Shown here: piece by piece, positions 5,137-58,463 of the stretch
Layout: each line of letters begins with the position of its first letter
How positions within the stretch are numbered: the stretch's first letter is position 1
Assembly (NCBI GenBank): GCA_027490975.1
Contig: JAIXXA010000035.1
Location: 9,164 to 73,163 of the forward strand
DNA length: 64,000 nucleotides
Direction of reading: 5' to 3'
Origin: Rhodospirillaceae bacterium
GTDB taxonomy: Bacteria > Pseudomonadota > Alphaproteobacteria > CACIAM-22H2
Made by a program: the position numbers and the translations under genes
Notes under the pieces: generated by a model
What the model saw: only the letters and a program-made list of their open reading frames with translations
Told to the model about the DNA's origin: nothing
The model's database searches: none

Positions 5137-5153
5137 CGAAGAAAAGCTGCGTT

Positions 5154-10536: not shown

Positions 10537-10618
10537 CGGTCCTGAAACAATACGCGTGGTGCGAAATTTGCCTTTGTAATGTAAACCTTTGAAGGTCCAA
10601 AGACGAGAGGCGCGCAAG

Positions 10619-17566: not shown

Positions 17567-18036
17567 CTGTTTCGACGATCCAAAGGTGCGGATGGCGGGG
17601 CAGGACGCGATCGCAATGTCGACGCAACGATACGTGCGATTTGGTTTCGAAGTAAACCAAATGGGCTTATCGCAAGTGCTTGCGCCGCACGAGACAGCGC
17701 TGCAACCGCAAAAACTCGGGCGATGGAAAAAGAAAGGGCCGCGCCCGAAGGCACGGCCCAAGTTTAGGGAGGAAACGCCCACGAAACGGCGCAAAGGCCA
17801 TTTCGAGCTGCGACAATCAATGTCGCAATGCACAATTTAATTGTTGCGCCGCAAAAATCAAGGCCTAATCCGACCAAGATTGTTAAAAATCAGAGACTAA
17901 GGCACGCCCAAGCAGTATCTGCCTGAGTTTACTGGAGATTTATTTCAGAAAAACCGTGCCAGAATACCGCAGCGCACCATAACACCGCCTTCTGGCGGCC
18001 CGCGTTGCGCCGAGCCCTTGCCCTCGCCGCACTCCA

Positions 18037-29183: not shown

Positions 29184-29194
29184 GCGCTCGGGCG

Positions 29195-30133: not shown

Positions 30134-30253
30134 AAGAGGGTGCGCTTCGCACCCAGAACGGGCGTCTTGCGCTTGTAACGCGCAAATTCAAAGGTTACAC
30201 CAGCAAGACGAACATTTTGCCGGAGTCGCCCGGCGCTGTAAGGAATCCTGCCG

Positions 30254-32371
30254 ATGGCTGCCAAAAAGAAGCCCGCCAAGAAATCCCCCGCGCCTAAACC
30301 CGTTGGGAAAAAGCCGGTCGCCAAGCCGGCAAACGGCAAAAAAGCGACGCAAAAGAAGCCACTTGCGGCCAAAAAGCCGACGCCGGCCAAGAAGCCCGTG
30401 GCGGCCAAGAAGCCCGCACCGCCCGCCAAAAAGGCGCCGGCCGCCAAAAAACTGGCGCCCGCCCCCAAAAAACCGGCGCTTGCGGCCAAGAAACCGGCCC
30501 CGGTGGCCAAAAAGCCGGCCGCCGCGCTGAAATCGCCGCCGAAAACGCCGGCAAAGCCGGCCGCAAAGCCGACCGCAAAGCCGGGGGCGAAGTCGGCAGT
30601 TGCCGTCCCAACGCCGGCCCCCGCAAAATCACCCCCGGCCAAACCGGCCGCGGCAGCCCCGGCGGCCAAATCGGCGCCGGCCAAGGCCCCGCCGGCCAAG
30701 CCCGTCGCCGTTGCCCCGCCGCCGCCGCCCAAACTGCCGGTGAAGGGCCCCGGCGGCACCGTGCTGCCCGACGACGGCGTGAAGCTCGACGCCAAGGTGC
30801 TGCCGGCCCAGCTCGCGGTTCTGACGCCAGAAGCGATCGCCTTCGTGGTCGAACTCGAGCGCAAATTCGGCGCGCGCCGCCGCGAACTTTTGGCCGCGCG
30901 CACGGCCCGCCAGGCGCGCCTCGATGCCGGCGAAAAACCCGATTTTTCGCCGATGACGCGCAGCGTGCGCGAAGGCGACTGGACGGTTGCCCCGCTGCCC
31001 AAAGACATCTTGGACCGCCGCGTCGAAATCACCGGCCCCGTCGACCGCAAGATGGTGATCAACGCGCTGAACAGCGGCGCCAACGTGTTCATGGCCGATT
31101 TCGAGGATGCCTCGGCGCCGTCCTGGAACAATCTCGTCGACGGCCAGATCAATCTGCGCGACGCGATCGCCGGCACCATCGCCTACAGCGATGCGGCATC
31201 GGGCAAAAGCTACAAGCTCAACCCCAAACACGCGGTGCTGTTCGTGCGCCCGCGCGGGCTTGCCCTGCCCGAGAAGCATCTGCTGGTCGACGGCCAGCCG
31301 ATGGCGGGCGCCTTCTTCGATTTCGGTTTCTATTTCTTCCACAACGCCAAAGCGCTGCTCAAAAACGGCTCGGGCCCGTATTTCTACCTGCCCAAGCTCG
31401 AAAGCCATCTCGAGGCGCGGCTGTGGAACGACATTTTTGTGCATTCGCAGACAGCACTCGGCATCAAGACCGGCTCGATCAAGGCGACGGTGCTGATCGA
31501 AACGATCCTCGCCGCCTTCGAGATGGACGAAATCCTCTACGAACTGCGCGAGCATTCGGCCGGGCTCAATTGCGGGCGCTGGGACTACATCTTCAGCTTC
31601 ATCAAGAAATTCGCAACGCGCCCCGCCTGCCTGATGCCCGATCGCGGCCAAGTCACGATGGTGTCGCATTTCATGCGCGCCTACAGCCAGCTCGCGATCA
31701 AGACCTGCCACAAGCGCAACGTGCACGCGATGGGCGGCATGGCCGCACAGATCCCGATCAAAGACGACGCGGCCGCCAACGCGGCCGCCATGGACAAGGT
31801 GCGCGCCGACAAGGAGCGCGAAGCCGCCGACGGCCACGACGGCACGTGGGTGGCGCATCCGGGCCTCGTGGCGATCGCCAAGGCCGCCTTCGACGACAAG
31901 ATGAAAGACGCCAACCAGATCGCGCGCAAACGCCAGGACGTGCACGTGGCGGCGGCCGACCTGCTGCAGGTTCCGGCGGGAACGGCGACCGAAGCGGGCC
32001 TGCGCCAGAACTGTGCGGTCGGCATCGGCTACCTCGAAGCCTGGCTGCGCGGCCAGGGCTGCGTGCCGCTGTACAACCTGATGGAAGACGCCGCCACCGC
32101 CGAAATCAGCCGCGCGCAGGTGTGGCAGCAGCTGCACCACGAAGCGCATCTCGACGACGGGCGTGCGGTCGAAAAACCCTTCGTGCGCAAGATCGTCGAC
32201 GAGGAGCTCGAGAAGCTCAAGAAGAGCGTGGGCGCCGAGCGCTACGCCAAGGGCCGCTACAAAGAGGCGGCCAAGATGTTCCTCGAACTCGTGGAAGCCG
32301 AAACCTTCCCCGAATTCCTGACGCTCCCCGCCTACGACTGGCTCGTCGCCAACGAAGCCAAGCTCGGCTAA
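30254..32371 (+). CDS. aceB: malate synthase A with about 170-aa N-terminal Lys/Ala/Pro-rich histone-H1/AlgP-like repeat extension
   Basis: Residues from about 170 align end-to-end with E. coli AceB (EITGPVDRKMVINALNSGANVFMADFEDA, GLNCGRWDYIFS, CVPLYNLMEDAATAEISR). The N-terminus is (A/P)AKKP repeats with no stop or Met before the catalytic core. AAGGAA SD 9 nt upstream of the 30254 ATG. Confidence 0.85.
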   Translation: MAAKKKPAKKSPAPKPVGKKPVAKPANGKKATQKKPLAAKKPTPAKKPVAAKKPAPPAKKAPAAKKLAPAPKKPALAAKKPAPVAKKPAAALKSPPKTPAKPAAKPTAKPGAKSAVAVPTPAPAKSPPAKPAAAAPAAKSAPAKAPPAKPVAVAPPPPPKLPVKGPGGTVLPDDGVKLDAKVLPAQLAVLTPEAIAFVVELERKFGARRRELLAARTARQARLDAGEKPDFSPMTRSVREGDWTVAPLPKDILDRRVEITGPVDRKMVINALNSGANVFMADFEDASAPSWNNLVDGQINLRDAIAGTIAYSDAASGKSYKLNPKHAVLFVRPRGLALPEKHLLVDGQPMAGAFFDFGFYFFHNAKALLKNGSGPYFYLPKLESHLEARLWNDIFVHSQTALGIKTGSIKATVLIETILAAFEMDEILYELREHSAGLNCGRWDYIFSFIKKFATRPACLMPDRGQVTMVSHFMRAYSQLAIKTCHKRNVHAMGGMAAQIPIKDDAAANAAAMDKVRADKEREAADGHDGTWVAHPGLVAIAKAAFDDKMKDANQIARKRQDVHVAAADLLQVPAGTATEAGLRQNCAVGIGYLEAWLRGQGCVPLYNLMEDAATAEISRAQVWQQLHHEAHLDDGRAVEKPFVRKIVDEELEKLKKSVGAERYAKGRYKEAAKMFLELVEAETFPEFLTLPAYDWLVANEAKLG
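30263..30760 (+). repeat. imperfect tandem repeat of gccaagaagccggc(c)-type units encoding the KAP-rich tract
   Basis: Direct reading of 30263-30760 shows repeated gccaagaagcccg/gccaaaaagccggc units. Confidence 0.7.
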
Positions 32372-45506: not shown

Positions 45507-46651
45507 CAAAACGACCTCGGCAGGCCCAGCACATGCTCGGCGATGTAGGACAGCACGAGATTGGTCGAGACGGGCGCCACCTGGTAGAGCCGCGTCTCGC
45601 GGAATTTGCGCTCGACGTCGTATTCCTCGGCAAAGCCGAAGCCGCCATGCGTCTGCAGGCACGCTTCGCCGGCCTGCCACGACGCGTCGGCCGCCAGCAT
45701 CTTGGCCATGTTGGCTTCCGCCCCGCAGGCCTCCCCCGCCTCGTAGCGCCGGATCGCTTCGTGCACCATGAGCTCGGCGCTGCGCATCGCGGCATAGGCT
45801 TTGGCGATCGGGAACTGCACGCCCTGGTTCTGGCCGATCGGGCGGCCGAATACGCGGCGCGATTTGGCGTAGGCCGACGCCGTCTCGACGAACCAGCGCG
45901 CATCGCCGATGCACTCGGCGGCGATCAGGATGCGCTCGGCATTCATGCCGTCGAGAATGTAGCGAAAGCCGCGCCCTTCCTCGCCGATGCGGTTTTCCGC
46001 CGGAATTTCGACATTGTCGAAAAACACTTCCGTCGTCGCGTGGTTCAGCATCGCGCGCAGCGGCTTAATGGCGAGGCCCTTGGCGCCGCGCATGTCGAGC
46101 ACGAAGACCGAAAGCCCGTCGGTTTTTTTGGCAGTCGCGTCTTTCGGCGCGGTGCGCGCGAGCAGCAGCATCAGGTCCGAATGTTCGGCCCGGCTTGTCC
46201 ACACTTTCTGGCCGTTGACGACATAGACGTCGCCGCGCCGCTCGGCCGTGGTGCGAATGGCCGAAGTGTCGCTGCCCGCGTCGGGTTCGGTCACGCCGAA
46301 CGCCTGCAGGCGCAACGCGCCCGACGCAATGCCCGGCAGGTAAAGCTGCTTTTGCGCGGGCGAGCCGTGCCGCAGGATGGTGCCCATCGTGTACATCTGC
46401 GCGTGGCATGCGGCACCGTTGGCGCCGCTGGCGTGGATCTCTTCGAGGATCGCAGCGGCGGCCGAGAGCGGCAGGCCCGCCCCGCCGTATTCTTCCGGAA
46501 TGAGGGCCGCCAGCATGCCGCTGTCGGTCAGCGCTTTGACAAACGCGGTCGGATATTCGCGCGCGCGGTCGCGGTCGCGCCAATAGCGGCCGGGAAAATC
46601 GCGACACAGCGCTTGCACGCTCGCGCGGATCTCCGCGTGCCGCGCAATCAT
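45506..46651 (-). CDS. acyl-CoA dehydrogenase
   Basis: Start MIARHAEIRASVQ, 381 aa. ACAD N/M/C domains (FGVTEPDAGSD, catalytic-base region GGFGFAEEYDVERKFRE). ATGA overlap with the upstream Ldh_2 gene. Confidence 0.85.
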   Translation of the reverse strand: MIARHAEIRASVQALCRDFPGRYWRDRDRAREYPTAFVKALTDSGMLAALIPEEYGGAGLPLSAAAAILEEIHASGANGAACHAQMYTMGTILRHGSPAQKQLYLPGIASGALRLQAFGVTEPDAGSDTSAIRTTAERRGDVYVVNGQKVWTSRAEHSDLMLLLARTAPKDATAKKTDGLSVFVLDMRGAKGLAIKPLRAMLNHATTEVFFDNVEIPAENRIGEEGRGFRYILDGMNAERILIAAECIGDARWFVETASAYAKSRRVFGRPIGQNQGVQFPIAKAYAAMRSAELMVHEAIRRYEAGEACGAEANMAKMLAADASWQAGEACLQTHGGFGFAEEYDVERKFRETRLYQVAPVSTNLVLSYIAEHVLGLPRSF

Positions 46652-47652
46652 CCCGCCGCCCGTTTGCGCAGATCGGCCAAGAGATCGGCGGGCACCTTGA
46701 TGCCGTCCTTGGCCGCCTTTTCGCGCAAGGCAAGGCGCCTTGCGCCCGGCAGACGCGTGCCCGATTGGCCGAGCACCGCCCCCAGCAACGCTTCGACGCG
46801 CGCGGCAAACGCTTCGCCCGCAAGCCGTGCGGGATCGATCAGCAGCAGCAACTGGCCCACGCGCGGCGGCGGGCCTTTGGCGTCGAAAAACGAGCTCGCC
46901 TCGAAACCGAAATGCGAGGCGGTCAAGGCCGCCGACAGCAATTCGACCATCAGCACGAGGGCCGCCCCCTTGGCGTCGCCCAGCGGCAGCATCGTGCCCG
47001 CGAGCGCCTGTTTGGCGTCGGTCGTGGGCGCGCCTGCCGGATCGAGCGCCCAGCCCTCCGGAATCGCTTCGCCCTTCTGCGCGGCGACCATGATCTTGCC
47101 GCGCGCGACTTTGGACAATGACAAGTCGATCACCAAGGGCGGCTGGCCGCGCCGCGGGCAGCCAAACGCGATCGGGTTGGTGCCGAACAGCGGCTTTGAC
47201 CCGCCCCACGGCGCGATCGCCGCCGGCGAATTGCCGAACAGCAACGCCACAAGCCCGTGCTTGGCCGCGGCTTCGACATGCAGCCCCGCCGCCCCGAAAT
47301 GGTGCGAGTTGGCAATGCCGACCGCAACCGTGCCGGCAGACTTCGCCATGTCGGCGGCGCGCAGAATCGCAGCCTGAATGGCCGGATAGGCAAAGCCGTC
47401 TTTTGCATCGACCAGCAACGTGCCGGGTGCCGTAACCGTCAACACAGGGACCGCATGGCCATCCACTTTTCCGACCTTGGCTTGATCGGCATATGCCGCG
47501 ACGCGCGACAGGCCGTGGCTGGCAAGCCCGTCGGCTTCGGCTGCAATCAACGCGTCGGCGACGGACGCCGCATTGGCGGGCGACGTGTTCGCGGCAACGA
47601 GGGCCGCCACGGCCAGCCGATGCGCTTCGGCCAAGGCGATGGTTTCGCTCAT
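46648..47652 (-). CDS. Ldh_2 family (malate/L-lactate dehydrogenase 2 / (R)-sulfolactate dehydrogenase ComC-like) oxidoreductase
   Basis: Start MSETIALAEAH, 334 aa. Ldh_2 signatures (GIANSHHFGAAG, GTNPIAFG). Overlap with the upstream gene. Confidence 0.8.
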   Translation of the reverse strand: MSETIALAEAHRLAVAALVAANTSPANAASVADALIAAEADGLASHGLSRVAAYADQAKVGKVDGHAVPVLTVTAPGTLLVDAKDGFAYPAIQAAILRAADMAKSAGTVAVGIANSHHFGAAGLHVEAAAKHGLVALLFGNSPAAIAPWGGSKPLFGTNPIAFGCPRRGQPPLVIDLSLSKVARGKIMVAAQKGEAIPEGWALDPAGAPTTDAKQALAGTMLPLGDAKGAALVLMVELLSAALTASHFGFEASSFFDAKGPPPRVGQLLLLIDPARLAGEAFAARVEALLGAVLGQSGTRLPGARRLALREKAAKDGIKVPADLLADLRKRAAG

Positions 47653-48599
47653 TTGCGGCCCTTGATACCAAGCTTCTGCAGGGCCCCGCGCACATTGGCG
47701 ACGGTCACCGTCGAGACGCGCACATTGCCCTCGGCGGTCACGCCCGCAATATGCGGCGTAAGCCACAGGCGCGGCACGCCTTCGAGAACGGAGCCTTTTT
47801 TGAGCGGCTCCTGGTCGAACACGTCGAGCAGGGCGCCGCCCAATGCGCCGGCCTTGAGGGCGGCGGCCAACGCCGCCTCGTCGATGATGCCGCCGCGCGC
47901 CGTGTTGATCACGAGGGAAGTCGACTTCATCGCGGCGAGGCGCTTGGCATCGAGCAGGTTGCGCGTCTGCGGCGTCAATGGCACGTGCAGCGACACGACG
48001 TCGCTCGACGCGCACAGCGTGTCGATGTCGGCCACGCGCGCCACGCCGTATTGCGCCCAGGCCGGATCGTCGGGCTTCAGCATCGGATCGTACGCGACGA
48101 TCTCCATCTCGAGCGCTTTGGCGCGGCTCGCCACCGCGCGCGCAATGCCGCCGAAGCCGACAAGGCCCAAGCGCTTGCCCATGGCTTCGCCGAGCATCAG
48201 GTCGTTGCGCGGCCATTTGCCGGCAAGCACGGCATCGTTGGCCTTCCACACGTCACGCAAACCCACGAGGATCGCCGCAATCACGTATTCGGCGACCGAT
48301 ACGGTGTTGGCCCCGGTCGCGGGGAAAACCTGGATGCCGCGCCGCGCGCACTCGTCCATGTCGATATTGTCGAGGCCGACGCCCAGGCGGCCGATCGCTT
48401 TGAGATTTTTCATCGCCGCCAGCACGGGCCCGCGCACTTGCGTGCGGTTGCGCACGATGATGGCGGGGCTGTCGGCCGCCAGCCGCGCGAGTTCGTCAAG
48501 ATTGTCGACGAGTTTGGGATCGTAATGGACGGAATAGTCCCGGGCGAGATCGTCCACCGCCCATTGGTCCACGAATTCGGCTACGACGATGTCGTACAT
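47649..48599 (-). CDS. D-isomer-specific 2-hydroxyacid dehydrogenase (PGDH-like)
   Basis: Start MYDIVVAEFV. NAD motif GLVGFGGIARAV, catalytic R...E...H (TARGGIIDE, PHIAG). Confidence 0.85.
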   Translation of the reverse strand: MYDIVVAEFVDQWAVDDLARDYSVHYDPKLVDNLDELARLAADSPAIIVRNRTQVRGPVLAAMKNLKAIGRLGVGLDNIDMDECARRGIQVFPATGANTVSVAEYVIAAILVGLRDVWKANDAVLAGKWPRNDLMLGEAMGKRLGLVGFGGIARAVASRAKALEMEIVAYDPMLKPDDPAWAQYGVARVADIDTLCASSDVVSLHVPLTPQTRNLLDAKRLAAMKSTSLVINTARGGIIDEAALAAALKAGALGGALLDVFDQEPLKKGSVLEGVPRLWLTPHIAGVTAEGNVRVSTVTVANVRGALQKLGIKGRK

Positions 48600-48600
48600 T

Positions 48601-50205
48601 TCACATCTGCTCCATATACTCGGCCGGGTCGACGAGCGCGTCGATGACCGTGAATTTGCGCACGGCAAGCGCTTGCGCGAAAGCCGTTTCGAACGCCGCA
48701 AGGCTTTCGACGCGCACGCCGACAGCCCCGCACGCTTGCGCCACGAGGTCGAAACGCGGGCCCGCGAAATCGACGGCGCGCTGCGCCATCTGCATCTTGG
48801 CCTGTTTGAGTTTGATCAGCGACAAGGCGCCGTCGTTGAGCACGACGACGACGATCGGCAGATCGAGCTCGGCCGCAAGCGGCAACTCGCCCAAAGTCAT
48901 CAGCATGCAGCCGTCGCCGACCAAGGCCACGACCGGCGCGGCAGGGTCCGCCAGCTGCGCGCCGATGGCCGCGGGCACGGCATATCCCATGCAGCAGAGC
49001 CCGTTCGACTGCATGAGCTGGCCCGGCGCTTGGGCGGCGATCGCGTGGCTTGCCAGGATGCGATGGGCGCCCACATCGACCGTCATGCGCCATTTCGGCG
49101 TGACGCGATCCGACACGGCCTTGAACAACGCCGCCGGCGAAATGCCCGCAGCGGGATTGCGCGGGCGCACGATATGCGCGACCTCCGCGCGGCACGCGGC
49201 CAGCATTTCAGATGCCCAGGCGGGCGTGCTCGCAGCCGTCAGCTGCGCCAGCATCGTCGGCAGATCGCCGTAGCATTCCCGGCCCAGCGGGAAGATGCGG
49301 TGGTTGAGCGGCCCCCAATCGAGCGCGATCACGTCGACCGCCGCGCCCCACGCATCGACCCAGGCGTCGCGCAGTTCGATCGGATCGAAGCCGACGCACA
49401 CGATGAGATCGGCCGCCGCCAGCAGTTTGAGATTGGCCGCATCGACGATCGGCGACAGGCCGACCGCACCCAGGCACAGCGCATGTGTGTCGCTGACCAC
49501 ACCCTTGGCTTTGTAGGTCGCGAAAAACGGCATGCGGCGTGCCTCGAGGAACGCCTGCAGCGCTTGCGGCACGCGCTCGGCCAAAGCGCCGCGCCCCACG
49601 AGGGCCAGCGGCCGCTTGGCCGCGGCGAGCTTCGCGCACAAATCGGCGGCGGCATCTTCGGCAAGGCCGGTGCGCAAGATCTGGGCTGGGCTCGGCTCGG
49701 CCGTCTCTTTGCTGTCCTGGCGGCCGAGGTCGGCCGGCACGTTCAGCATCACGGGGCCGGCGGGATAGCTCGTCGCAATGTCGAGGGCGCGCGCCAGATG
49801 CTGGGCGGGGCGCGCGGCGTTGAGATGGGCCGCGTATTTGACGACCGGCGTCGCCAGCGCCACATGGTCGAACGCCTGGTGGTTGTAGATCTGTGCGTTC
49901 GCCGTCGCCATTTCGCCGGTCAGAACGGCGATGGGCGAACGCTCCATCAAGGCGCCCGCAAGCCCCGCCGTGGCGTTGGCGATGCCGGGGCCGAGTGCGG
50001 GGATCAGCACTTGCGGTTTGCCGGTGATCTGCGCCGCGGCATCGGCCATGAAGGCCGCCGCCGGCTCGGACTTCGCGAGCACGAAGCGAATGCCCGCCTC
50101 TTCGCAGGCGCGCACGGTTTCGAGCACGTCGTTGCCCGGAATGCCGAAGGCAAAAGAAGCGCCCCATGCCTTCAGCGTGCGCGCGAGACGGTCGGCGACC
50201 TTCAT
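48601..50205 (-). CDS. thiamine-pyrophosphate enzyme, acetolactate synthase large-subunit / sulfoacetaldehyde acetyltransferase-like family
   Basis: N-terminal TPP-PYR (GIPGNDVLE), central, and C-terminal TPP-binding GDGCMLM motifs. 534 aa. Confidence 0.85.
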   Translation of the reverse strand: MKVADRLARTLKAWGASFAFGIPGNDVLETVRACEEAGIRFVLAKSEPAAAFMADAAAQITGKPQVLIPALGPGIANATAGLAGALMERSPIAVLTGEMATANAQIYNHQAFDHVALATPVVKYAAHLNAARPAQHLARALDIATSYPAGPVMLNVPADLGRQDSKETAEPSPAQILRTGLAEDAAADLCAKLAAAKRPLALVGRGALAERVPQALQAFLEARRMPFFATYKAKGVVSDTHALCLGAVGLSPIVDAANLKLLAAADLIVCVGFDPIELRDAWVDAWGAAVDVIALDWGPLNHRIFPLGRECYGDLPTMLAQLTAASTPAWASEMLAACRAEVAHIVRPRNPAAGISPAALFKAVSDRVTPKWRMTVDVGAHRILASHAIAAQAPGQLMQSNGLCCMGYAVPAAIGAQLADPAAPVVALVGDGCMLMTLGELPLAAELDLPIVVVVLNDGALSLIKLKQAKMQMAQRAVDFAGPRFDLVAQACGAVGVRVESLAAFETAFAQALAVRKFTVIDALVDPAEYMEQM

Positions 50206-50256
50206 CGGGTCGCCGCCGTTCCGGTCGGCGTGCGAGGCGCGGCCGCGCGCTCCGTC

Positions 50257-51465
50257 TTACGCACTTTGGTAGAGTTTGGTCATCACGAATTCGCGATGGC
50301 CCAAGGCCTCGGCGCAGGTATAGCGGCCGTTGCACACGCGGATCATCACGTCGATCAAGCGATCGCCCGCCTCGTCGAGATCCATTTCGCGGCGCAGGAT
50401 GCCCGACACGTCGAGATCGATATGCTCGGGCATCAGGCGCGCGGTCTTGGGATTGGCCGTGAGCTTGATCACGGGCTCGATCGGATTGCCGATCACGTTG
50501 CCCTGGCCCGTGGGGAACAGATGCACGACGAACCCCGCCGCCGCCTGCAGCGTCACGCATTCGGCGGCGGCCGACGACGTGTCCATGAAATAGAGGCCCT
50601 TGCCCTTGGCCGGCATTTCGGCCGGGCCCAGCACGTCCACGTATTTCGTCTTGTGGCCAATCTTCTGGAAATTGCCGAAGGCTTTTTCCTCGATCGTCGT
50701 GAGGCCGCCCGCGATGTTGCCCTTTGTCGGCTGCGAGTCCGACAGGTCGTCGGTTTTGTAGCGCTCGATCATGCCTTGGTACGCGTTGAACACGCCCATG
50801 AACTTGTCGGCGACGTTTTTGTTGAGCGCGCGCTTGACCATTTCGGTCTCGGCACCCGTGAGCTCGGACGTTTCGCCGAAGCACGTGGTCGCCCCCAAGG
50901 GGTCGATCTTGTCGATGAGATTGCCGACCGTCGGGCACGAGGCGAGGCCCGACGTGGTGTCGGATTCGCCGCATTTGGTCGAGACCCAAAGCTCGTCGAT
51001 CGTGCAGGCCTCGCGCTGCTTTTCGGTCGCCCACATCACGAATTGCTGGGCGACGCGGCTGGCCGCTTCGATGGTTTTGAGATCGCCGTTGCCTTCGATC
51101 GCGAAGCCCTGCACGGGCTTGCCGGTCTTGGCGATGCCGTCCACGACGCGCGCGGTCCAGCCGGGCTCGATGCCGATCACGACCACGGCCGCCACGTTGG
51201 CGTTGCAGCCCGTGCCGATCAGCGTGCGGAAATGGAGGGCCAGATCTTCGCCGAACTGCAGGCGCCCGTAGGCGTGCGGCAGCGCCATCGTTCCCTTGAT
51301 GTTGTTGGCGACGGCTTCGGCCGCCGAATTCGACAGATCGTCGAGCGGCAACACGATGACGTGGTTGCGGATGCCGACGCGGCCATTCTCGCGGCGATAG
51401 CCCATGAAGGGCAGTTTGCCGACCGAACGCGCGCGCTTTTTGATGAGTGCTGGGGCTTTGGCCAT
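50257..51465 (-). CDS. UxaA-family dehydratase large subunit (altronate dehydratase C-terminal homolog; SuyB-like)
   Basis: Start [10 protein letters not shown]...[17 protein letters not shown] corresponds to the start of the UxaA large domain. Perfect AAGGAG SD 7 nt upstream. Confidence 0.75.
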
Positions 51466-51506
51466 GGGCCGCTCCTTTTTGTTCGCCGATTCCCTTAAGG
51501 GCACGC

Positions 51507-51791
51507 TTACCAGCGCTTGGTCTTCATGTTGTGGACGTGGACATGGTCGCCTTTTTTGGCGTCCGCCACGATGCGGCCGATATCGTGCCCGTATTTGAGG
51601 ACCGTATCGCCCTTCTTGAGATCGACGAGGGCGATCTTGTGGCCGAGCGGAATGGCTTTGAGCGCCTTGAGCTTGACCGTGCCGTCGCCTTCCATGAGCC
51701 AGCCTTCGAGCATGGCGCCGGGTTTGACGTCTTCGACGACGATCACGCCGACCGTGTCCTTTTTGTCGTGGACGATGAATTGGGTCGCCAT
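51507..51791 (-). CDS. UxaA-family small subunit with SAF domain (SuyA-like)
   Basis: 94 aa, [24 protein letters not shown]-domain pattern. GGGGAGGG SD. Confidence 0.7.
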
Positions 51792-51896: not shown

Positions 51897-52625
51897 ATGC
51901 GCTCCAAACTCGCCCGGCCTCTGCCGCTTTACGCGCGCGCCAAACAAGCTTTGATGCAGAAGCTCGGCAGCGGCGTGTGGCGGGCTGGCGAAAAACTGCC
52001 GCCCGAACCCGCCCTTGCCGCGAGCCTCGGCGTGAGCCAAGGCACCGTGCGCCGGGCGCTGGACGACATCGCCAAAGCCAACCTGATCGTGCGCCGGCAG
52101 GGCCGCGGCACGTTCGTGGCCGAGCACACGCAAGCGCGCGCTCTGTTCCATTTTTTCCATCTCGTCGGCGACGACGGCAGGCGCGCTTTGCCGGGCAGCC
52201 GCATGCTGTCGCTCAAGGCGGGCCCTGCGACGCGCGACGAATCCCAGCGCCTGGGCCTCGCACCGTCGGCGCGCGTCGTGCGGCTGCAGCGTTTGCGCCT
52301 GCTCGAAGGGGCGGCCGCGATCGTCGAACGCATCGTCGTGCCCGCCGCCCTCTTCCAAGGGCTCGACGTGCGCGACCGGGCCGATCTGCCCAACGAGCTC
52401 TACAAGCTCTACCAGGACCGTTTCGGCGTGTCGGTCGCGCGGGCCGCCGAACGGCTCAAAGCCGTGGCCGCGAGCCCCGAAGACGCGGCCTATCTCGGTT
52501 TGCGCAGCGGTGCCCCCTTGCTCGAGATCGACCGCATCGCGTTCGCGCTCGACGGACGCGCCTGCGAATGGCGCGTGTCGCGCTGTTCGACGCACCGCCA
52601 CCACTATGTTTCCGAAGTGGTTTAG
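51897..52625 (+). CDS. GntR family transcriptional regulator, HutC subfamily (UTRA effector domain)
   Basis: N-terminal wHTH (LPPEPALAASLGVSQGTVRRALDDI) plus a C-terminal UTRA-like domain. 242 aa. Confidence 0.85.
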   Translation: MRSKLARPLPLYARAKQALMQKLGSGVWRAGEKLPPEPALAASLGVSQGTVRRALDDIAKANLIVRRQGRGTFVAEHTQARALFHFFHLVGDDGRRALPGSRMLSLKAGPATRDESQRLGLAPSARVVRLQRLRLLEGAAAIVERIVVPAALFQGLDVRDRADLPNELYKLYQDRFGVSVARAAERLKAVAASPEDAAYLGLRSGAPLLEIDRIAFALDGRACEWRVSRCSTHRHHYVSEVV

Positions 52626-52640
52626 CCGTAGGATCGCGCC

Positions 52641-53771
52641 ATGGCGACACCGGACGAAATCCGCGACGGCTTGCGCGAACTCGATTTTGCTTTGCAGGCG
52701 GCCTGGAAGCTCGGCCAGCACATGATTGCGGGCTGGACGGTGGCGGGCAATGTCGTGTCGATCTGCGCGGCGCCTGTGTGGCGCGTGCTGGCCGAGGCGC
52801 CCAAAGTGCCGCGCGTGCTGTCGGGCAGCCGCCAGATGGGGGCCCAGACCTTCGGCGAGGTCGCCAAGACGCTGCAGGCGCGCCCGATCCGCGTCGAGCT
52901 GCCCTTCGCGGTCGGCGACGGCAAAGGCGACGTCGATCCGCAGGTCGTGGACCAAGTCGTGCGGCGCTACGGCGTGTCGCGCACCGAGCATCGCGCGGTG
53001 ATGCTGTTCGACATCGTCGGTTTCTCGAAGGTCGATCCGCTCGCGCAGATGGCGCAGCTCGCGAGCCTCGAATTTTCGATCAACAACGCGGCCAAAAAGA
53101 TGGCCGAGATCGGGCTCGACATCGAGCTCGCACGCTCGACCGTCGGCGACGGGTTCTATGTGTGGAACCGCGCGCGCGGCTTCGAGGCAGATCTGCGCAC
53201 CTATGCGGCCCTGGTGCTGATCCTCGCCGACAATGCCGTGGCGCGCCTGCGCGGCCAGGCCGATTTTGTGCCCACCTTGCGCACGTGTTTTTCGGTGGGG
53301 GCGCACTACGCCTACCACCAGATCGAAGGCACGCGCCCGCGCGGCTTCGAATATCTGGTGGGCGAAGTGACGATCCAACTGGCGCGCCTGATCGGCAAGG
53401 CGCAGGCGAACCAAGTGTGCGTGGGCAGTTTCGTGCGCCCGACCGAGCCGCCGGTCGTGCGCCAGCTCGACACGATTTTGTTTCTCGCACGCGCCGAAAA
53501 GCTCGTCGACAAGCTGCAGGGCCTCACCGTGGGCGGCCACGCGATCGCGCGCATCCGCAGCCAGATCACCGGCGGCAAGGTCGGCGACACGGCGTTGCCG
53601 CTCGTCGTGCACCGCATCGTCGACAAACACGGCTACAACCACGATCTGTTCAACACGCGCCTGCTCGTGCAGCGCGAAGAAGCCGACCCGATCGTGGTGG
53701 GCCTGCAGCCGCAAGACCTCGCGGGCTTCGAAGCCGAAGCGCTGCCCTACAAGATCCCCGAAATCACGTGA
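52641..53771 (+). CDS. class III nucleotidyl-cyclase-fold protein (divergent, possibly non-catalytic)
   Basis: VMLFDIVGFS (metal Asp of the F[A]DIVGFT motif), STVGDGFYVW (second Asp, GD), and a YLVGEVTIQLARL region matching GxxVNxAARL but with Asn replaced by Ile. About 100-aa N-terminal and C-terminal extensions. Starts 16 nt after gntR. Confidence 0.6.
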   Translation: MATPDEIRDGLRELDFALQAAWKLGQHMIAGWTVAGNVVSICAAPVWRVLAEAPKVPRVLSGSRQMGAQTFGEVAKTLQARPIRVELPFAVGDGKGDVDPQVVDQVVRRYGVSRTEHRAVMLFDIVGFSKVDPLAQMAQLASLEFSINNAAKKMAEIGLDIELARSTVGDGFYVWNRARGFEADLRTYAALVLILADNAVARLRGQADFVPTLRTCFSVGAHYAYHQIEGTRPRGFEYLVGEVTIQLARLIGKAQANQVCVGSFVRPTEPPVVRQLDTILFLARAEKLVDKLQGLTVGGHAIARIRSQITGGKVGDTALPLVVHRIVDKHGYNHDLFNTRLLVQREEADPIVVGLQPQDLAGFEAEALPYKIPEIT

Positions 53772-54207
53772 CGCTCGTTGCCGCCAGCGGCTGCGGCTGG
53801 CCGGCATCGTCGAGGGCGACATAGGTGAAATTCGCGTCCGTCACCATCACGCGTTCGCCGTGGCCCTGGCGCAGCACCCACACTTCGACGTCGAAACAGA
53901 TCGAAGTGCGGCCGATTTTGACGAGCTGCGTGTAGCAGCACACGGTGTCGCCGACATTGACCGGCCGGTGGAACACGATATTCGAGACCGCAACCGTCGC
54001 CACGCGGCCGTGCGCATAGCGGGTCGCGCTCATTTTGCCGGCAACATCCATCAGCGACATGATCCAGCCGCCGAACACGTCGCCGCGTGGATTGGTGTCG
54101 GCCGGCATCGCCAAGGTGCGCGACGCCAATTCGCCGCGCGGCGCGCGCGTCGGCGGTGCGGCAGGGTTCGTTGTGGAAATGTGCTGCGTTCGGTCGAGAT
54201 AGCTCAT
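53764..54207 (-). CDS. acyl-CoA thioesterase (hotdog fold, YciA-like)
   Basis: GDVFGGWIMSLMDVAG hotdog motif. AGGAGGG SD. Confidence 0.75.
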   Translation of the reverse strand: MSYLDRTQHISTTNPAAPPTRAPRGELASRTLAMPADTNPRGDVFGGWIMSLMDVAGKMSATRYAHGRVATVAVSNIVFHRPVNVGDTVCCYTQLVKIGRTSICFDVEVWVLRQGHGERVMVTDANFTYVALDDAGQPQPLAATSVT

Positions 54208-54346: not shown

Positions 54347-55618
54347 CTATTCCGCTGCGAGCCTTGCTTTGGCGCGCGCATCGAGAAGGGCCGTGTCGAG
54401 CGGCAGGCCCTTGAGCTGGTCGTCGTCGGCGATCGCGTCGCGCAGATCGATGCGGTCGAGACTCGCGCCGGCGAGTTTGGCGCCGCGCAGATCGACCGCA
54501 CGCAACGCGGCCTGGTCGAGCTTGGCGGCAAAACGGCGGTCGGCCGCGATCACGAGCGGCGAAAAATCGCAGTCGCGCAGATCGGCGCGCGTGAGTTTGG
54601 CCCCCGTGAGATTGACGCCGCGCAGATCCGCCCCGGCAAGTTTGCAGTCGCGCAAGTCGGCGCCCATCAGGCGCGCACCCTGCAATTGGCAACCGCGCAG
54701 ATCGAGCCCGACCAGAATCGCCTTCTCCGCGCGCAAGCCCACCAGCACCAGCCCCGCCAAAGGCGGCAGGCTGCGGCAATCGTAGCCGGAAAGATCGGCG
54801 GCCTTGCCTTGCGCCCCGCCCGTCTGCGCCCAGAGGGCGTGCAGGCGCAGCAGTTCGGCGGGTGCAACACCCTGCTCGGCGAGCGCTTTGCCGGCGAGAT
54901 TGTCGTTGACGACGTCGACCAGCGAAGCGCCGTCCATCACGGCGTCGGCAAGCTTCGTCCCCGTCATCACGGCGCCGTCGAGCGACGCTCCCGTGCAATT
55001 GGCGCCGCGCAGATCGGCCCCTGCGAGATTGGCGCCGACGAACTGCGCCTTCTGCAGATTGGCGCGCGCCAGTTTGCAGTCGCGCATGATCGCGTCGGTG
55101 AAATCGGCCTGGCCCGCCGACATGCCCTCCATCGACGCTTCGGAGAGGTTGGCGGCGGCAAGCGTGGCCCCCTGCAATTCGGCCGGGCCCACTTTGCCCA
55201 GGCGCACGGCATGCAGATTGCCGGCTTTGTCTTTCTGCGTGATCGAGCCTTCGCGCAGATCGGCCTGGATCAGATTGGCGCGCGTGAGATTGGCGCCGCG
55301 CAAACACGCCCCGCGCAGATCGGCGCGCACGAGGCTCGCCCCCTCGAGATCGGCCTCGCGAAAATCGCAGGCGAACAAGGACGCGCGGTCGAACACGCAA
55401 TCCGACAGCATGGCGCCGCGGAACGAGGCTCCCGTGCAATCGGCCTCGGCGAGATTGGCGCCCGCCATCGCCATGCCCGAGAGATCGGCGAACGCAAGCT
55501 GCGCGCGCACGCCGCCGGGTTTGCCGGTGCGAAACCGCTCGTGCAGCGCGATCGCATTCGCAAGTTCCGAATGCGAGTATTTTTTGCGCTGAATGTTCGA
55601 GGACTGGGTCGAGAGCAT
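54347..55618 (-). CDS. pentapeptide repeat-containing protein (423 aa)
   Basis: Continuous A(D/N)LxG pentapeptides. ATG at MLSTQ preceded by AAGG; the listed ORF starts at an upstream TTG. Confidence 0.8.
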   Translation of the reverse strand: MLSTQSSNIQRKKYSHSELANAIALHERFRTGKPGGVRAQLAFADLSGMAMAGANLAEADCTGASFRGAMLSDCVFDRASLFACDFREADLEGASLVRADLRGACLRGANLTRANLIQADLREGSITQKDKAGNLHAVRLGKVGPAELQGATLAAANLSEASMEGMSAGQADFTDAIMRDCKLARANLQKAQFVGANLAGADLRGANCTGASLDGAVMTGTKLADAVMDGASLVDVVNDNLAGKALAEQGVAPAELLRLHALWAQTGGAQGKAADLSGYDCRSLPPLAGLVLVGLRAEKAILVGLDLRGCQLQGARLMGADLRDCKLAGADLRGVNLTGAKLTRADLRDCDFSPLVIAADRRFAAKLDQAALRAVDLRGAKLAGASLDRIDLRDAIADDDQLKGLPLDTALLDARAKARLAAE

Positions 55619-55750
55619 CGCGCCGCCTTTTGACAAAGGCCAAAGTGCCCGATCAGAAACGCTAATTCAAGCCCTTAGCACCTGCGCGATGCGTAGAACC
55701 GCGCAATTTGCTAGGCTCGCGCGTTCGTTTCGAACATCGGAGGCCTGTCG

Positions 55751-56506
55751 ATGCGGCGTCGCATGTTTTTGCTGGGTGCAAGCGGCTCGGCTCTCGCAGC
55801 GGCACCGCTTGCCGCCCAAAGCCTGCTCGACCAAGGGCGCAGTCTTTTGAACCAAGGCGGCGTTGCCGTGCCCGGCGGCAATGGCGGCAGCGCGCGCGGG
55901 CGCGGCCTGTCGGCGGGCGAGATTGCGCAAGGCCTCAAAGACGCGCTCGAAAAAGGCAGTGCGTCGGCGGTTGCCAAGCTCGGCCGCACGGATGGATTTC
56001 TGGGCGACCCGGCCGTGCGCATTCCGCTGCCCGACCAGCTGGCGCGCGTGCAATCCGCCTTGCGCAGCATCGGCCAGTCGGGCCTCGCCGACGATCTCGA
56101 AACGCGCATGAACCGAGCGGCCGAGCAGGCCATGAATGCCGCCAAAGACATTTTCGTGCGCGCGATCCGCGGCATGACCGTGGCGGACGCAACCGGCATC
56201 CTGAACGGCCCGGCAGATGCCGCGACCCAGTATCTGCGCCGCACGACGGGCGGCGAACTCGGGGCCAAGCTGCGCCCGCCGATCGAACAGGCGCTCAGAA
56301 GCGCGGGCGCCGTTGCGGCCTACGACCGTATGATGGGCAGCTACCGCAATCTGCCCGGCGTGCCGAACGCGACGGCCGACCTTGCCGACTGGACGCGCGA
56401 CAAAGGCCTCGACGGCATTTTCCACTATGTGGCGCGCGAAGAGGCCGACATCCGCGCCAATCCCGCCGCGCGCACGACCGAGCTGTTGCGCAAAGTCTTC
56501 GGCTAG
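55751..56506 (+). CDS. DUF4197 family protein (Tat signal)
   Basis: MRRRMFLLGASGSALAAAPLAAQS signal. GGAGG SD 8 nt upstream. Confidence 0.65.
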   Translation: MRRRMFLLGASGSALAAAPLAAQSLLDQGRSLLNQGGVAVPGGNGGSARGRGLSAGEIAQGLKDALEKGSASAVAKLGRTDGFLGDPAVRIPLPDQLARVQSALRSIGQSGLADDLETRMNRAAEQAMNAAKDIFVRAIRGMTVADATGILNGPADAATQYLRRTTGGELGAKLRPPIEQALRSAGAVAAYDRMMGSYRNLPGVPNATADLADWTRDKGLDGIFHYVAREEADIRANPAARTTELLRKVFG

Positions 56507-56588
56507 GGCGCAGCCCCGGCCGATCTATCCAGCGCGCGCCCGAGGCGCTATGGTCGCAGAAATTCGCCGTTATCCGGAGTCCGCGCAC

Positions 56589-58463
56589 ATGCCGCCTGCC
56601 GCCCAATCGACCTTCACCACGCGTCCCGAAATCGTCGGCACGTTCGGCGTCGTTTCTTCGACCCACTGGATCGCAAGCCAGGTCGGCATGTCGATTCTCG
56701 AGAAAGGCGGCAACGCGTTCGACGCGGCCGTGGCGGCGGGTTTCGCGCTTCAGGTCGTCGAACCGCACATGAACGGCCTCGGCGGCGACGCCGTGCTGAT
56801 CGCCTGCACCGCCGACGGCACGCCCAAAGTGATCTGCGGCCAGGGCACGTCGCCCGCCGGCGCTTCGATCGCGCACTACAGAAGCGAAGGGCTCGATCTC
56901 GTGCCGGGCACGGGCTTGCTTGCCGCAACAGTGCCGGGCGCCTTCGATGCCTGGATGCTGATGCTGCGCGACTACGGCACGATCACGCTTGCCGAAGCGC
57001 TGTCGCCCGCCATCGGCTACGCCAAAAACGGCTTTCCGCTGCTGCCCGGCGTCGCCGGTGCGGTCTCGTCGGTCGCCGAGATTTTCAAAAACCATTGGAC
57101 GAGCTCGGCCGCCAACTGGATGCCGGGCGGTGCTGTGCCGACCGCCGGCACGCTGTTTACGACGCCCAAACTGGCGGCAACGCTTGAGCGCATCTTGGCC
57201 GAGGGTGCTTCGGCAGGCCCCGACCGCGAAGCGCAGATCGAGAAGGCGCGTGCGGCCTACTACAAAGGTTTTGTCGCCGAAGCGATCGACCGTTTCAGCC
57301 GCACGACCGACGTCATGGACGTCTCGGGCCGGCCGCACAAGGGCGTGCTGACGGGAGCCGACATGGCCGCGTGGCAGGCCACGTTCGAAGCGCCCGCGAC
57401 CTACGATTATCGCGGCGTGACCGTTTGCAAAGCCGGGCCCTGGAGCCAGGGCCCCGTGCTGCTGCAGGTGCTGGCGTTGCTGCAAGGCTACGACGTGCCC
57501 GCGATGGACACGAACGGCCCCGACTTCATCCATCTGCTCGTCGAAGCGACCAAGCTTGCCTATGCCGACCGCGAAGCCTGGTATGCCGATCCCAATTTCG
57601 CCGACGTGCCGCTCGAGGCGTTGCTGTCGGATGCCTACAACGCCGAGCGCCGCAAGCTCATCGGCGACAAAGCCTCGCTCGAATTGCGCCCCGGCGCGCC
57701 TTTGGGCCGCGCGGCCGTGCTGCCGAAATTCAACGTCGTCGGCACCAAGCGCACGATCCCGGGCATGGGCGGTTTCGGCGAACCCGCACGCGTCGAAAGC
57801 GACCAACAGAAGCAGGACGCCTATCGCGACGGCGGGGCCTCGGCCTTCGCGCGTGCGGGCAAGGCCGCGCGCGGGCCTGCCGAGGGCGATACGTGCCATC
57901 TCGACGTGGTCGATCGCTGGGGCAATGTCGTGGCCTGCACGCCGTCGGGCGGCTGGCTGCAATCTTCGCCGACCGTGCCCGAGCTTGGCTTCTGCCTGGG
58001 CACGCGCGCGCAGATGTTCTGGCTGCAGGAGGGCCTGCCCTCGAGCCTCAAGCCCAACATGCGCCCGCGCACGACGTTGACCCCGTCGATGGCGATCAAA
58101 GACGGCAAGCCGTGGCTCGCTTTCGGTTCGCCCGGCGGCGACAACCAGGACCAATGGATCGCGCAGTTTTTCATCCGCCATGTCGACCACGGCCTCAACA
58201 TGCAGGCCGCGATGGACCAGCCGATGCTGCAGACCGACCATTGGCCGAACTCGTTTTTCCCGCGCGAAGCACGGCCCGGCAAGGTGCAGCTCGAAGCGCG
58301 CTTCCCCAAAGAGACGATCGACGCGCTCAAGGAAAAAGGCCACGACATCGAGATCGGCGGCGACTGGTCGCTGGGCCGCAACGCCGCCGCCAAGCGCGAA
58401 GGCAAATTGCTGAAGGCCGCAGCCACGCCGCGCCAGCAGCAAGCCTACGCGGTCGGCCGCTAG
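56589..58463 (+). CDS. gamma-glutamyltransferase family protein
   Basis: FTTRPEIVGTFGVVSSTHWIASQVG N-terminus; autoprocessing-site context (...GDT/CHLDVVD). 624 aa. Alternative start at 56550. Confidence 0.8.
   Translation: MPPAAQSTFTTRPEIVGTFGVVSSTHWIASQVGMSILEKGGNAFDAAVAAGFALQVVEPHMNGLGGDAVLIACTADGTPKVICGQGTSPAGASIAHYRSEGLDLVPGTGLLAATVPGAFDAWMLMLRDYGTITLAEALSPAIGYAKNGFPLLPGVAGAVSSVAEIFKNHWTSSAANWMPGGAVPTAGTLFTTPKLAATLERILAEGASAGPDREAQIEKARAAYYKGFVAEAIDRFSRTTDVMDVSGRPHKGVLTGADMAAWQATFEAPATYDYRGVTVCKAGPWSQGPVLLQVLALLQGYDVPAMDTNGPDFIHLLVEATKLAYADREAWYADPNFADVPLEALLSDAYNAERRKLIGDKASLELRPGAPLGRAAVLPKFNVVGTKRTIPGMGGFGEPARVESDQQKQDAYRDGGASAFARAGKAARGPAEGDTCHLDVVDRWGNVVACTPSGGWLQSSPTVPELGFCLGTRAQMFWLQEGLPSSLKPNMRPRTTLTPSMAIKDGKPWLAFGSPGGDNQDQWIAQFFIRHVDHGLNMQAAMDQPMLQTDHWPNSFFPREARPGKVQLEARFPKETIDALKEKGHDIEIGGDWSLGRNAAAKREGKLLKAAATPRQQQAYAVGR

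Follow-up and report, generated by a model that had tools for sequence, protein, structure and literature searches.

A divergent class III nucleotidyl-cyclase-fold protein from a Rhodospirillaceae bacterium and its conserved pentapeptide-repeat neighbour

Does a protein that resembles class III nucleotidyl cyclases but carries an isoleucine in place of the catalytic asparagine belong to this fold, and which of its neighbouring genes, if any, is its partner? cAMP and cGMP are produced chiefly by class III cyclases, whose catalytic code, consisting of two aspartates, an Asn-Arg motif, and a specificity pair, is considered well understood. The question was raised by a gene in a 64,000-nucleotide stretch of DNA (hereafter the window) from a Rhodospirillaceae bacterium. 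An initial annotation, made from the sequence by itself, had described its product as a class III nucleotidyl-cyclase-fold protein. The gene, the motifs of its product, and the surrounding genes are listed in Table 1.

Table 1. Features of the CHD-like gene and its neighbours in the window
Feature	Coordinates	Strand	Remarks
GntR/UTRA (HutC-type) regulator	51897..52625	+	Pfam GntR, UTRA; 15 nt upstream of the CHD-like gene
Divergent class III cyclase-homology (CHD-like) gene	52641..53771	+	376 aa; ATG start
N-terminal domain, residues 1-110	52641..52970	+	Family-specific; conserved W22, G25, W32, R109, Y110
Cyclase-homology core, residues ~111-345	52971..53675	+	β1 RAVMLFDIVGFS; β2/3 ARSTVGDGFYVWNR; α4 GEVTIQLAR; C-terminal DKHG strand pair
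D124 codon	53010..53012	+	Aligned with the first metal-binding Asp (hhalign); D in 85/92, E in 6/92
S166-T-V-G-D170	53136..53150	+	S166 at the substrate-specifying Lys/Glu position; D170 aligned with the second metal-binding Asp (hhalign)
Y238 codon	53352..53354	+	Second substrate-specifying position (hhalign); Y in 57/92, F in 18/92
T244-I245-Q-L-A-R249	53370..53387	+	I245 in place of the catalytic Asn; R249 aligned with the transition-state Arg (hhalign)
D328-K329-H330 motif	53622..53630	+	Kept in about 80/92 members
YciA-type acyl-CoA thioesterase	53764..54207	-	Between the CHD-like and repeat genes; Pfam 4HBT; NCBIfam YciA at 149 bits, slightly short of the 162-bit cut-off
Tandem pentapeptide-repeat protein	54347..55618	-	~423 aa; Pfam Pentapeptide (PF00805) E 1.2e-59, 10 stretches

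Fold and residue register of the CHD-like protein

A spurious reading frame is ruled out by the 409 homologues found in one protein search, together with the start methionine shared among homologues; profile matches in another library numbered 407. The start is preceded, 8 nt upstream, by the Shine-Dalgarno-like sequence TAGGAT. Because hundreds of homologues keep the key residues nearly invariant, the cyclase-like motifs, FDIVGFS (residues 123-129), VGDGF (168-172), and VTIQLAR, which includes T244-I245 and R249, lie far beyond chance. In agreement with the initial annotation, no transmembrane segment was detected in the protein (maximum Kyte-Doolittle(19) of 1.53), and no recognisable sensor domain was found.

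Direct assignment of the family by sequence returned nothing. The initial annotation had proposed Pfam Guanylate_cyc (PF00211) as a check, but neither the window protein nor any of 88 diverse relatives matched this profile, even at E≤1. NCBIfam and PADLOC produced 0 matches, and searches of the PDB with phmmer and with a profile produced 0 at E≤10. Among 88 members, there was no match to GGDEF (PF00990), the GG[DE]EF motif was absent, and DUF2652 (PF10851) was not matched at E≤1. A regular-expression search of the window and the loci for a canonical cyclase as an internal reference also found none.

The fold comparisons gave a consistent answer. The Foldseek search with the CHD-like protein reached an E-value of 5e-8 with top matches that are all cyclases, and class III cyclases ranked first in both fold searches. 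By hhalign, the family aligned with canonical cyclase domains including bacterial CHDs over 139 co-linear columns (E 3e-5, probability 73%). The first canonical alignment, composed of mammalian C1/C2 domains and a consensus, gave the same register at a probability of only 9.5%, which rose to 73% upon addition of the bacterial CHDs. The gene product is a divergent class III nucleotidyl-cyclase-fold protein missed by standard annotation; the fold searches and the hhalign alignment thus bear out the initially proposed fold, and the motif register proposed with it is reproduced by hhalign and consistent with the fold searches.

Conservation of the active-site positions

We counted residue conservation over 92 diverse members taken from 50%-identity clusters. 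The initial annotation had stated that both metal-binding aspartates and the transition-state arginine are kept, and this applies to the family: in addition to D124, members retain D170 (84/92) and R249 (83/92). It had also stated that the canonical asparagine is replaced (VN to TI), and the replacement turned out to be family-wide, with isoleucine at position 245 in 71 of the 92 members, valine in 10, and asparagine in 0. The second substrate-specifying position is an aspartate or threonine in adenylate cyclases and a cysteine or serine in guanylate cyclases. Neither canonical pair (Lys/Asp(Thr) for ATP, Glu/Cys(Ser) for GTP) is found here; instead, the family has S/T166 (85/92) and Y/F238 (75/92). 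Two inspected outliers without key residues (P0231 and P0267) have lost several key positions together, and the overall conservation pattern looks typical of an enzyme family with a few dead paralogues. Judging from the strand order only, K329 may correspond to the lysine that binds the triphosphate in the canonical 'KG' strand; hhalign of C-terminal sub-alignments covering the DKHG region against this strand aligned nothing beyond 'GQILV'.

Compared with the canonical class III cyclases (PF00211; Rv1625c, 4p2f; CyaC, 1wc1; Cya2, 2w01; CyaB, 3r5g), whose HMM it does not match, the CHD-like protein has Ile/Val for Asn, and Ser/Thr with Tyr/Phe rather than Lys/Asp(Thr) or Glu/Cys. It also possesses an extra N-terminal domain and an enlarged β7/β8 region with the DKHG motif, and its gene has a conserved pentapeptide-repeat neighbour. 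A close likeness is to DUF2652 (PF10851), a Pfam-separate class III offshoot, predicted to be cyclase-like and present in Mycobacteria, Bacteroidetes, and Proteobacteria, which likewise retains the two aspartates and the arginine, has undergone the same Asn-to-Ile change, and is cytosolic and mostly single-module (PMC4886424). The DUF2652 proteins differ in their size of ~250 aa, in their neighbours (cNMP-binding proteins and alpha/beta hydrolases), and in having no reported pentapeptide-repeat partner. Rv1900c carries a histidine at the position of the catalytic asparagine, and this Asn-less class III cyclase has been reported to be active (PMC4886424). The precedents of Rv1900c and DUF2652 imply that loss of the asparagine does not exclude activity. 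Mutagenesis of the asparagine in mammalian adenylate cyclase and Rv1625c reduces kcat by one to two orders of magnitude. Since the asparagine and both specificity residues are non-canonical in the CHD-like protein, and kcat of such mutants is low, its activity may be weak or absent.

A conserved pentapeptide-repeat neighbour

The conserved genetic partner of the CHD-like gene is the pentapeptide-repeat gene two genes downstream, not the adjacent GntR regulator. The label "orphan" in the initial annotation therefore does not hold: the gene is regularly accompanied by one for a tandem pentapeptide-repeat protein of ~420 aa, which is located, in the window, just past the thioesterase gene. The TTG start at 55636 chosen by the ORF caller is probably too far upstream, since homologues open at the methionine encoded at 55618. 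The PDB sequence neighbours of the repeat protein are other proteins built of five-residue repeats, Np275/276, Qnr, and MfpA (2bm4, 6zt4).

A repeat gene of this size adjoins the CHD-like gene in 47 loci, convergently in 31 and directly upstream on the same strand in 16, with 11-28 nt between the annotated genes in loci with gene calls. Among the 60 species genomes scanned, the adjacency was observed in 41 of the 58 informative loci (~70%), and it persists despite the change of orientation. The pairwise distances of the CHD-like and repeat proteins are correlated (r = 0.95), and the pairing reaches a CHD-like member of only 37% identity. Four genomes contain two paralogous pairs, and in three of the four the nearest relative of the repeat protein corresponds to that of the CHD gene in the same pair. 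In about 30% of the informative loci, including many from Ferrovibrio and two from Tagaea, the repeat-protein gene is absent within 6 kb. When neighbourhoods were scanned starting from the repeat protein, a CHD gene adjoined only the closest relatives of that protein and was missing next to two-domain repeat proteins of 35-47% identity, indicating that the repeat-protein type is broader than the CHD pairing. We found no fusion of the CHD-like and repeat proteins. One apparent CHD match beside a repeat protein (L102) was discarded, as it arose from the REC domain included in the HMM and the protein is REC-GAF. Partners arranged convergently cannot share a transcript. Our literature search returned nothing relevant on a pentapeptide-repeat/cyclase pairing or on class III pseudo-cyclases.

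The gene following the CHD-like gene encodes, as initially described, a convergent thioesterase, which we identify as YciA-like and which overlaps the end of the CHD-like ORF by 8 nt. Only in the window and in two further loci (L011 and L012) does it separate the pair, whereas sister Tagaea loci have the pair tail to tail, 11-30 nt apart. The thioesterase gene is lineage-specific and does not belong to the CHD/repeat module.

The MfpA-MfpB 'conservon' of mycobacteria encodes a pentapeptide-repeat protein together with a small GTPase that controls it. The pair described here is similar in the genetic coupling of a pentapeptide-repeat protein to a nucleotide-binding signalling protein. MfpB is, however, a Ras-like GTPase and not a cyclase-fold protein, and MfpA is a single repeat domain of ~185 aa targeting gyrase, compared with the ~420-aa tandem repeat protein here.

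Proposed function and alternative readings

In several relatives, the whole ~360-aa module is fused to other domains, as REC-EAL-module (P0130, P0131), REC-module (P0165), or module-REC (P0152, P0153, P0162, P0164), and the key residues are all intact in the REC and REC-EAL fusions. The proteins carrying these receiver or REC-EAL fusions are distant relatives of the CHD-like protein. A 439-aa gene beside a REC-EAL fusion was considered as a repeat protein and rejected, since it turned out to be unrelated, with a WXXGXW repeat.

The CHD-like protein most likely works with the repeat protein, either as an output enzyme of nucleotide signalling or as a pseudo-cyclase that binds NTP. Our preferred explanation, to which we assign about an even chance, is a signalling output enzyme with presumed cyclase-type chemistry, partnered by the repeat protein. 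Such a cytosolic protein would bind metal-NTP through D124, D170, and R249 and perform cyclase-type phosphoryl chemistry. Ribose and base would be read unconventionally by Ile/Val at the asparagine position and by Ser/Thr166 and Tyr/Phe238 at the specificity positions, so that the product is not predictable from the canonical code. The free-standing forms might work with the repeat protein encoded next to them, which would be either their regulator or their target. In other lineages, the module may be wired to phosphorylation control in the REC fusions or to c-di-GMP turnover in the REC-EAL fusions. While the fold, the register, the conservation, the pairing with its co-divergence, the fusions, and the chromosomal distribution are observed, we infer catalysis, a head-to-tail dimer, the kind of product made, and any physical or regulatory connection with the repeat protein. 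Points that weigh against the preferred explanation are the failure of every cyclase HMM to recognise any of 88 members, the non-canonical asparagine and specificity positions, the lack of a conserved cNMP-binding receptor gene nearby in the annotated loci, the informative loci and the repeat proteins that occur without the pairing, the lack of a fusion between the two proteins, and the separate transcription of convergent pairs. More tentatively, the pair might constitute a previously unrecognised two-protein module of Rhodospirillales-type Alphaproteobacteria, in which an Asn-less enzyme makes a non-canonical product or uses an unusual NTP and the repeat protein serves as its direct regulator or receptor.

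A possible, if less probable, alternative is a pseudo-cyclase, which would bind NTP or a cyclic nucleotide with metal without turnover and serve as an allosteric sensor or scaffold for the repeat protein or for the fused EAL or REC domains. The family-wide absence of the catalytic asparagine, the non-canonical substrate-specifying pair, and the lack of a cyclase HMM match are in line with it, as is the resemblance of the REC-EAL-module proteins to EAL proteins with a degenerate regulatory palm domain. Degenerate palm sensors, such as GGDEF-EAL proteins with inactive GGDEF domains and the cyclase-like ATP-binding domain of PDB 6yii, share with the CHD-like protein the superfold, the company of EAL, a missing catalytic residue, and a plausible regulatory nucleotide-binding role. 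They differ in the domain order, GGDEF followed by EAL rather than EAL followed by the module, and in that the metal ligands and the arginine are strongly conserved in the CHD-like family. Degenerate domains usually lose metal ligands and the arginine first, but over 90% of members at 23-45% identity keep the metal-binding aspartate pair and the arginine. In addition, module-REC and REC-module are architectures typical of enzymatic output domains, and the activity reported for Asn-less Rv1900c (PMC4886424) also argues against a pseudo-cyclase.

The initial annotation had linked the protein, through possible co-transcription with gntR, to second-messenger or regulatory signalling in the catabolic pathway whose operon GntR regulates. 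It had placed the start of the CHD-like gene 16 nt after gntR; the close same-strand placement is correct, and the spacer measures 15 nt (52626-52640). As this gap is short and no terminator-like site was found within it, co-transcription of the two genes in the source organism is plausible. The arrangement is also kept across the Tagaea-like clade (loci with at least 73% identity; L011-L020 and L023) with spacers of 9-15 nt. In the window, gntR itself is divergent from an operon for a sugar-acid dehydratase, a TPP enzyme, and a 2-hydroxyacid dehydrogenase. However, the gntR-CHD arrangement occurs only in this clade. Outside it, the upstream genes are unrelated, namely TauE at 69-72% identity and DUF4169, PGI, or repeat protein elsewhere, and the sugar-acid dehydratase operon was not seen beside the CHD gene in the examined loci. 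The only widely conserved neighbour of the family is the repeat protein. A shared function of gntR and the CHD-like gene finds no support in the conservation of the neighbourhood, and we regard the proposed connection as improbable; according to our preferred explanation, the GntR gene would be a clade-specific neighbour, perhaps on the same transcript here, outside the system.

Some pentapeptide-repeat proteins, such as Qnr, MfpA, and AlbG, are DNA mimics. As these are sequence neighbours of the repeat protein, the CHD-like protein could be imagined as a palm-domain enzyme acting on nucleic acid (polymerase-, Cas10-, or GTP-cyclohydrolase-III-like) that is regulated by a DNA-mimicking partner. 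We consider this very unlikely: both fold searches put class III cyclases at the top, and the register matches them specifically; fusions to REC and EAL indicate nucleotide signalling rather than nucleic-acid metabolism; and the annotated loci show no conserved DNA-metabolism gene in the vicinity.

The CHD-like gene resides in syntenic chromosomal neighbourhoods within clades, with a divergence that tracks the taxonomic grouping of the hosts, and a search of 72,556 plasmids and 50,697 phage records gave no homologue; its distribution is chromosomal and non-mobile. Culturable hosts are Ferrovibrio xuzhouensis KCTC 42182 and alphaproteobacterium BAL199. No cNMP-binding receptor gene is conserved near the CHD-like gene in the annotated loci. 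The Pycsar cyclases (PycC; 7r65, 8jsz, 8jsf) resemble the CHD-like protein in their class III-type fold and in recognising substrates that are non-purine or non-canonical; the CHD-like gene differs in the lack of a PADLOC match, of a TM/TIR effector, and of a mobile-element location. That the protein is the cyclase of a Pycsar- or CBASS-like anti-phage system, and the repeat protein a novel effector in it, is the least credible reading, given this chromosomal distribution, the lack of a PADLOC match, and a repeat protein in which no TM, nuclease, or NADase domain was found, and the initial view that the locus is not a two-gene CBASS or Pycsar cassette stands. The argument originally given for that view was based on the thioesterase, a lineage-specific gene between the two partners.

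The CHD-like family represents a compact and strongly conserved branch in which the metal/Arg half of the catalytic code has been kept while the half reading ribose and base has been replaced throughout its history. If active, this branch would widen the rules of substrate recognition in the class III fold; if inactive, it would be a clean example of a conserved pseudo-cyclase retaining its metal site. To our knowledge, the functions of pentapeptide-repeat proteins outside the gyrase-protecting Qnr/MfpA group are largely unknown. The pairing, together with the receiver and EAL fusions, offers an experimentally accessible handle on these proteins, and if the two-protein module is true, a pentapeptide-repeat protein would gain a role in nucleotide second-messenger signalling.

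The gene and its fold

The gene for the CHD-like protein, a divergent class III cyclase-fold protein, is real, with TAGGAT 8 nt ahead of the ATG and the same Met serving as the start in homologues. The protein lacks any stretch of TM-level hydrophobicity (maximum Kyte-Doolittle(19) value of 1.53). A search of 5.8 billion proteins retrieved 409 homologues, some of which JGI names "class 3 adenylate cyclase". The best 120 of them span 372-411 residues, originate almost entirely from alphaproteobacterial MAGs, and carry no precomputed Pfam domain. The family is small, since profile searching of 1.84 billion cluster representatives gave only 407 matches. The nearest relative (97% identity) comes from a MAG that bears the name Telmatospirillum sp., those that follow (82-84%) mostly from Tagaea, and farther ones from Ferrovibrio, Thalassobaculum, and BAL199; Tagaea, Ferrovibrio, and Thalassobaculum are named genera of the Rhodospirillales.

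The CHD-like protein matched nothing in Pfam, NCBIfam, or PADLOC at E<=1, nor in the PDB at E<=10 by sequence and profile searches. The cyclase fold proposed in the initial annotation found no counterpart in the Pfam Guanylate_cyc model, and neither this model nor those of GGDEF and DUF2652 matched any of 88 diverse family members. However, the AlphaFold2 model, built with 49 homologues (pLDDT 91.1, pTM 0.88), retrieved exclusively cyclases as top Foldseek matches (E 5e-8), and the predicted structure thus gives a clear answer in favor of the cyclase fold. Consensus queries also recovered real PDB sequences of canonical cyclases, which we aligned. Profile-profile comparison with the family yielded 139 co-linear columns (E 3e-5, probability 73%), in the same register as a weaker first attempt. 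The cyclase core starts at about residue 111.

In this register, D124 and D170 correspond to the first and second metal-binding Asp, S166 to the substrate-specifying Lys/Glu, Y238 to the second position that sets specificity (Asp/Thr in ACs), I245 to the catalytic Asn, and R249 to the transition-state Arg. The motifs FDIVGFS (residues 123-129), VGDGF (168-172), and GEVTIQLAR, containing T244-I245 and R249, agree with these positions, confirming the residue mapping initially proposed, including the replacement of Asn by Ile. Among 92 members drawn from 50%-identity clusters, 85 have Asp and six Glu at position 124, 84 retain D170, and 83 retain R249. At position 245, 71 members have Ile, ten have Val, and none has Asn. 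The replacement is ancestral and family-wide rather than a local mutation. Ser/Thr occupies position 166 in 85 members and Tyr/Phe position 238 in 75. W175 and G241 are invariant (92/92), N176, T244, Q258, and N338 nearly so, and a D328-K329-H330 motif occurs in about 80 members. Two inspected outliers without the Asp/Arg set (P0231 and P0267) have lost several key positions together.

Pairing with a pentapeptide-repeat protein

Features of the window and of fetched loci (positions are those of the sequence named)
Sequence	Feature	Position	Strand	Remarks
Window	suhB/mmgR small RNA (RF00519)	17722-17805	-	Sole Rfam match; 53.5 bits, gathering score 41
Window	Composition excursion	28001-32000		GC 0.727 at 28-30 kb (window maximum); AT skew +0.25 at 30-32 kb
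Window	Gene run divergent from gntR	46648-51791	-	GD_AH (D-galactarate/altronate dehydratase type), TPP-dependent enzyme, D-2-hydroxyacid dehydrogenase, 94-aa ORF (no Pfam match at E<=1e-5); one more overlapping ORF beyond
Window	GntR/UTRA regulator	51897-52625	+	15 nt upstream of CHD-like ORF
Window	CHD-like ORF	52641-53771	+	ATG start, 376 aa
Window	YciA-type thioesterase	53764-54207	convergent	8-nt overlap with CHD-like ORF end
Window	Pentapeptide-repeat protein	54347-55636	-	As called; start probably Met at 55618
Window	DUF4197	55751-56506	+	Follows repeat-protein gene
Window	Gamma-glutamyltranspeptidase	56382-58463	+	Follows repeat-protein gene; listed with DUF4197
L005	471- and 369-aa genes	9140-11661	-	No Pfam match
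L018	489-aa ORF	7107-8576	convergent	In place of repeat gene
L102	REC-GAF response regulator, 671-aa pentapeptide-repeat protein	2219-5701	+	Regulator directly upstream; metagenome contig; also L105

Genomic context was sampled in 60 loci from species-representative genomes and several metagenome contigs. The recurrent neighbor is a gene for a tandem pentapeptide-repeat protein of ~410-430 residues, adjoining the CHD-like gene in 47 fetched loci, of which 31 are convergent and 16 have it directly upstream on the same strand, with gaps of 11-28 nt where the genes are annotated. Adjacency holds in 41 of the 58 informative loci among the 60 species genomes, and even in a member sharing no more than 37% identity with the window protein, the repeat-protein gene lies 28 nt upstream. 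The pairwise distances of one protein correlate with those of the other at Pearson r = 0.95. Four genomes each carry two paralogous CHD genes, every one with its own repeat-protein gene, and in three of them the nearest relative of the repeat protein follows that of the accompanying CHD gene. Sister loci from Tagaea have the two genes tail to tail, 11-30 nt apart; the window, L011, and L012 are the only loci with the YciA gene in between. The thioesterase is therefore a lineage-specific gene inside a two-gene cassette, contrary to its initial use as an argument against one.

About 30% of loci, many from Ferrovibrio, have no repeat gene within 6 kb. Two co-oriented Ferrovibrio genes of 471 and 369 residues (L005, with equivalents in L031-L037, L043-L045, L047, L048, L050, L060, L061, L065, and L067) lie beyond the repeat-protein gene or, where it is missing, directly adjoin the CHD-like gene; they may reflect simple synteny or stand in as partner. 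Two Tagaea MAG loci (L018 and L023) keep gntR upstream, but the 6 kb downstream of 7122 contain no pentapeptide-repeat gene. In a reciprocal scan starting from the repeat protein, the closest relatives of that protein (L076 and L078) were alone in having a CHD gene alongside; similar two-domain repeat proteins of 35-47% identity had none. None of the 88 diverse members is fused to a repeat protein. L102 is a further example of a repeat protein encoded beside a signalling protein; its "CHD" match was rejected as false, caused by the REC domain in the HMM, the protein being REC-GAF. Within the Tagaea-like clade, DUF4197 recurs near the two genes, as it does in L001, L021, L022, and L024 but not beyond, which looks like local synteny. 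No tRNA gene was found across the 64 kb.

Proposed function and its alternatives

We consider it about an even chance that the CHD-like protein is a cytosolic signalling output enzyme of the class III cyclase superfamily working with the pentapeptide-repeat protein. It would retain metal-NTP binding and perform cyclase-type chemistry with non-canonical ribose and base recognition, and the repeat protein would control it or be its target, REC or EAL domains taking this place in other lineages. Catalysis, dimerisation, the product, and a physical interaction between the two proteins are what we infer. The Asn loss is compatible with activity because of precedents: in the cyclase-like DUF2652 family, Ile likewise replaces the Asn and the Arg is retained, and Rv1900c has His at this position (PMC4886424).

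The main rival, a pseudo-cyclase binding nucleotide as a sensor, has precedents in the "cyclase-like ATP-binding protein" 6yii and in degenerate GGDEF domains beside EAL domains. It seems less likely than the enzyme. That metal ligands and Arg are so strongly retained in deeply diverged members favors chemistry over a purely scaffolding role. A link to the GntR-regulated pathway is a good deal less probable. The minus-strand run is presumably a catabolic operon under GntR/UTRA control, and the initially noted co-orientation stands in the window. However, GntR lies upstream only in the Tagaea-like clade (L011-L020 and L023, at least 73% identity), giving way to TauE at 69-72% identity and farther out to DUF4169, PGI, or others. 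We regard it as improbable that the protein is a palm enzyme acting on nucleic acid, with a partner that mimics DNA. A defence system is more improbable still, and a Pycsar/CBASS-type reading very unlikely: there is no PADLOC match, plasmid and phage collections contain no homologue, and synteny looks vertical.

The signalling reading concerns a known kind of fold and general chemistry. Another Asn-less cyclase-like family, DUF2652, has already been described (PMC4886424), whose model none of the 88 CHD-like members matches. What appears new is the family itself, outside every Pfam or NCBIfam model, with its S/T-Y/F-I residue set, fold-orphan N-terminal domain, and DKHG motif, as well as the conservation of a tandem pentapeptide-repeat gene at its side; a literature search for cyclase/pentapeptide-repeat pairing found no paper.

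Eight of the best 150 of the 407 profile matches are longer proteins, comprising REC-EAL-module (P0130 and P0131, ~800 residues), module-REC (P0152, P0153, P0162, and P0164), and REC-module (P0165) arrangements and one beginning within an EAL domain (P0127). All retain D124, D170, T244, I245, R249, DKH, and N338. Enzymatic output domains or nucleotide-sensing palm domains normally occupy such a fusion position. Fused with its key residues intact, the three-part module of ~360 residues thus behaves as one building block connected to two-component and c-di-GMP signalling.
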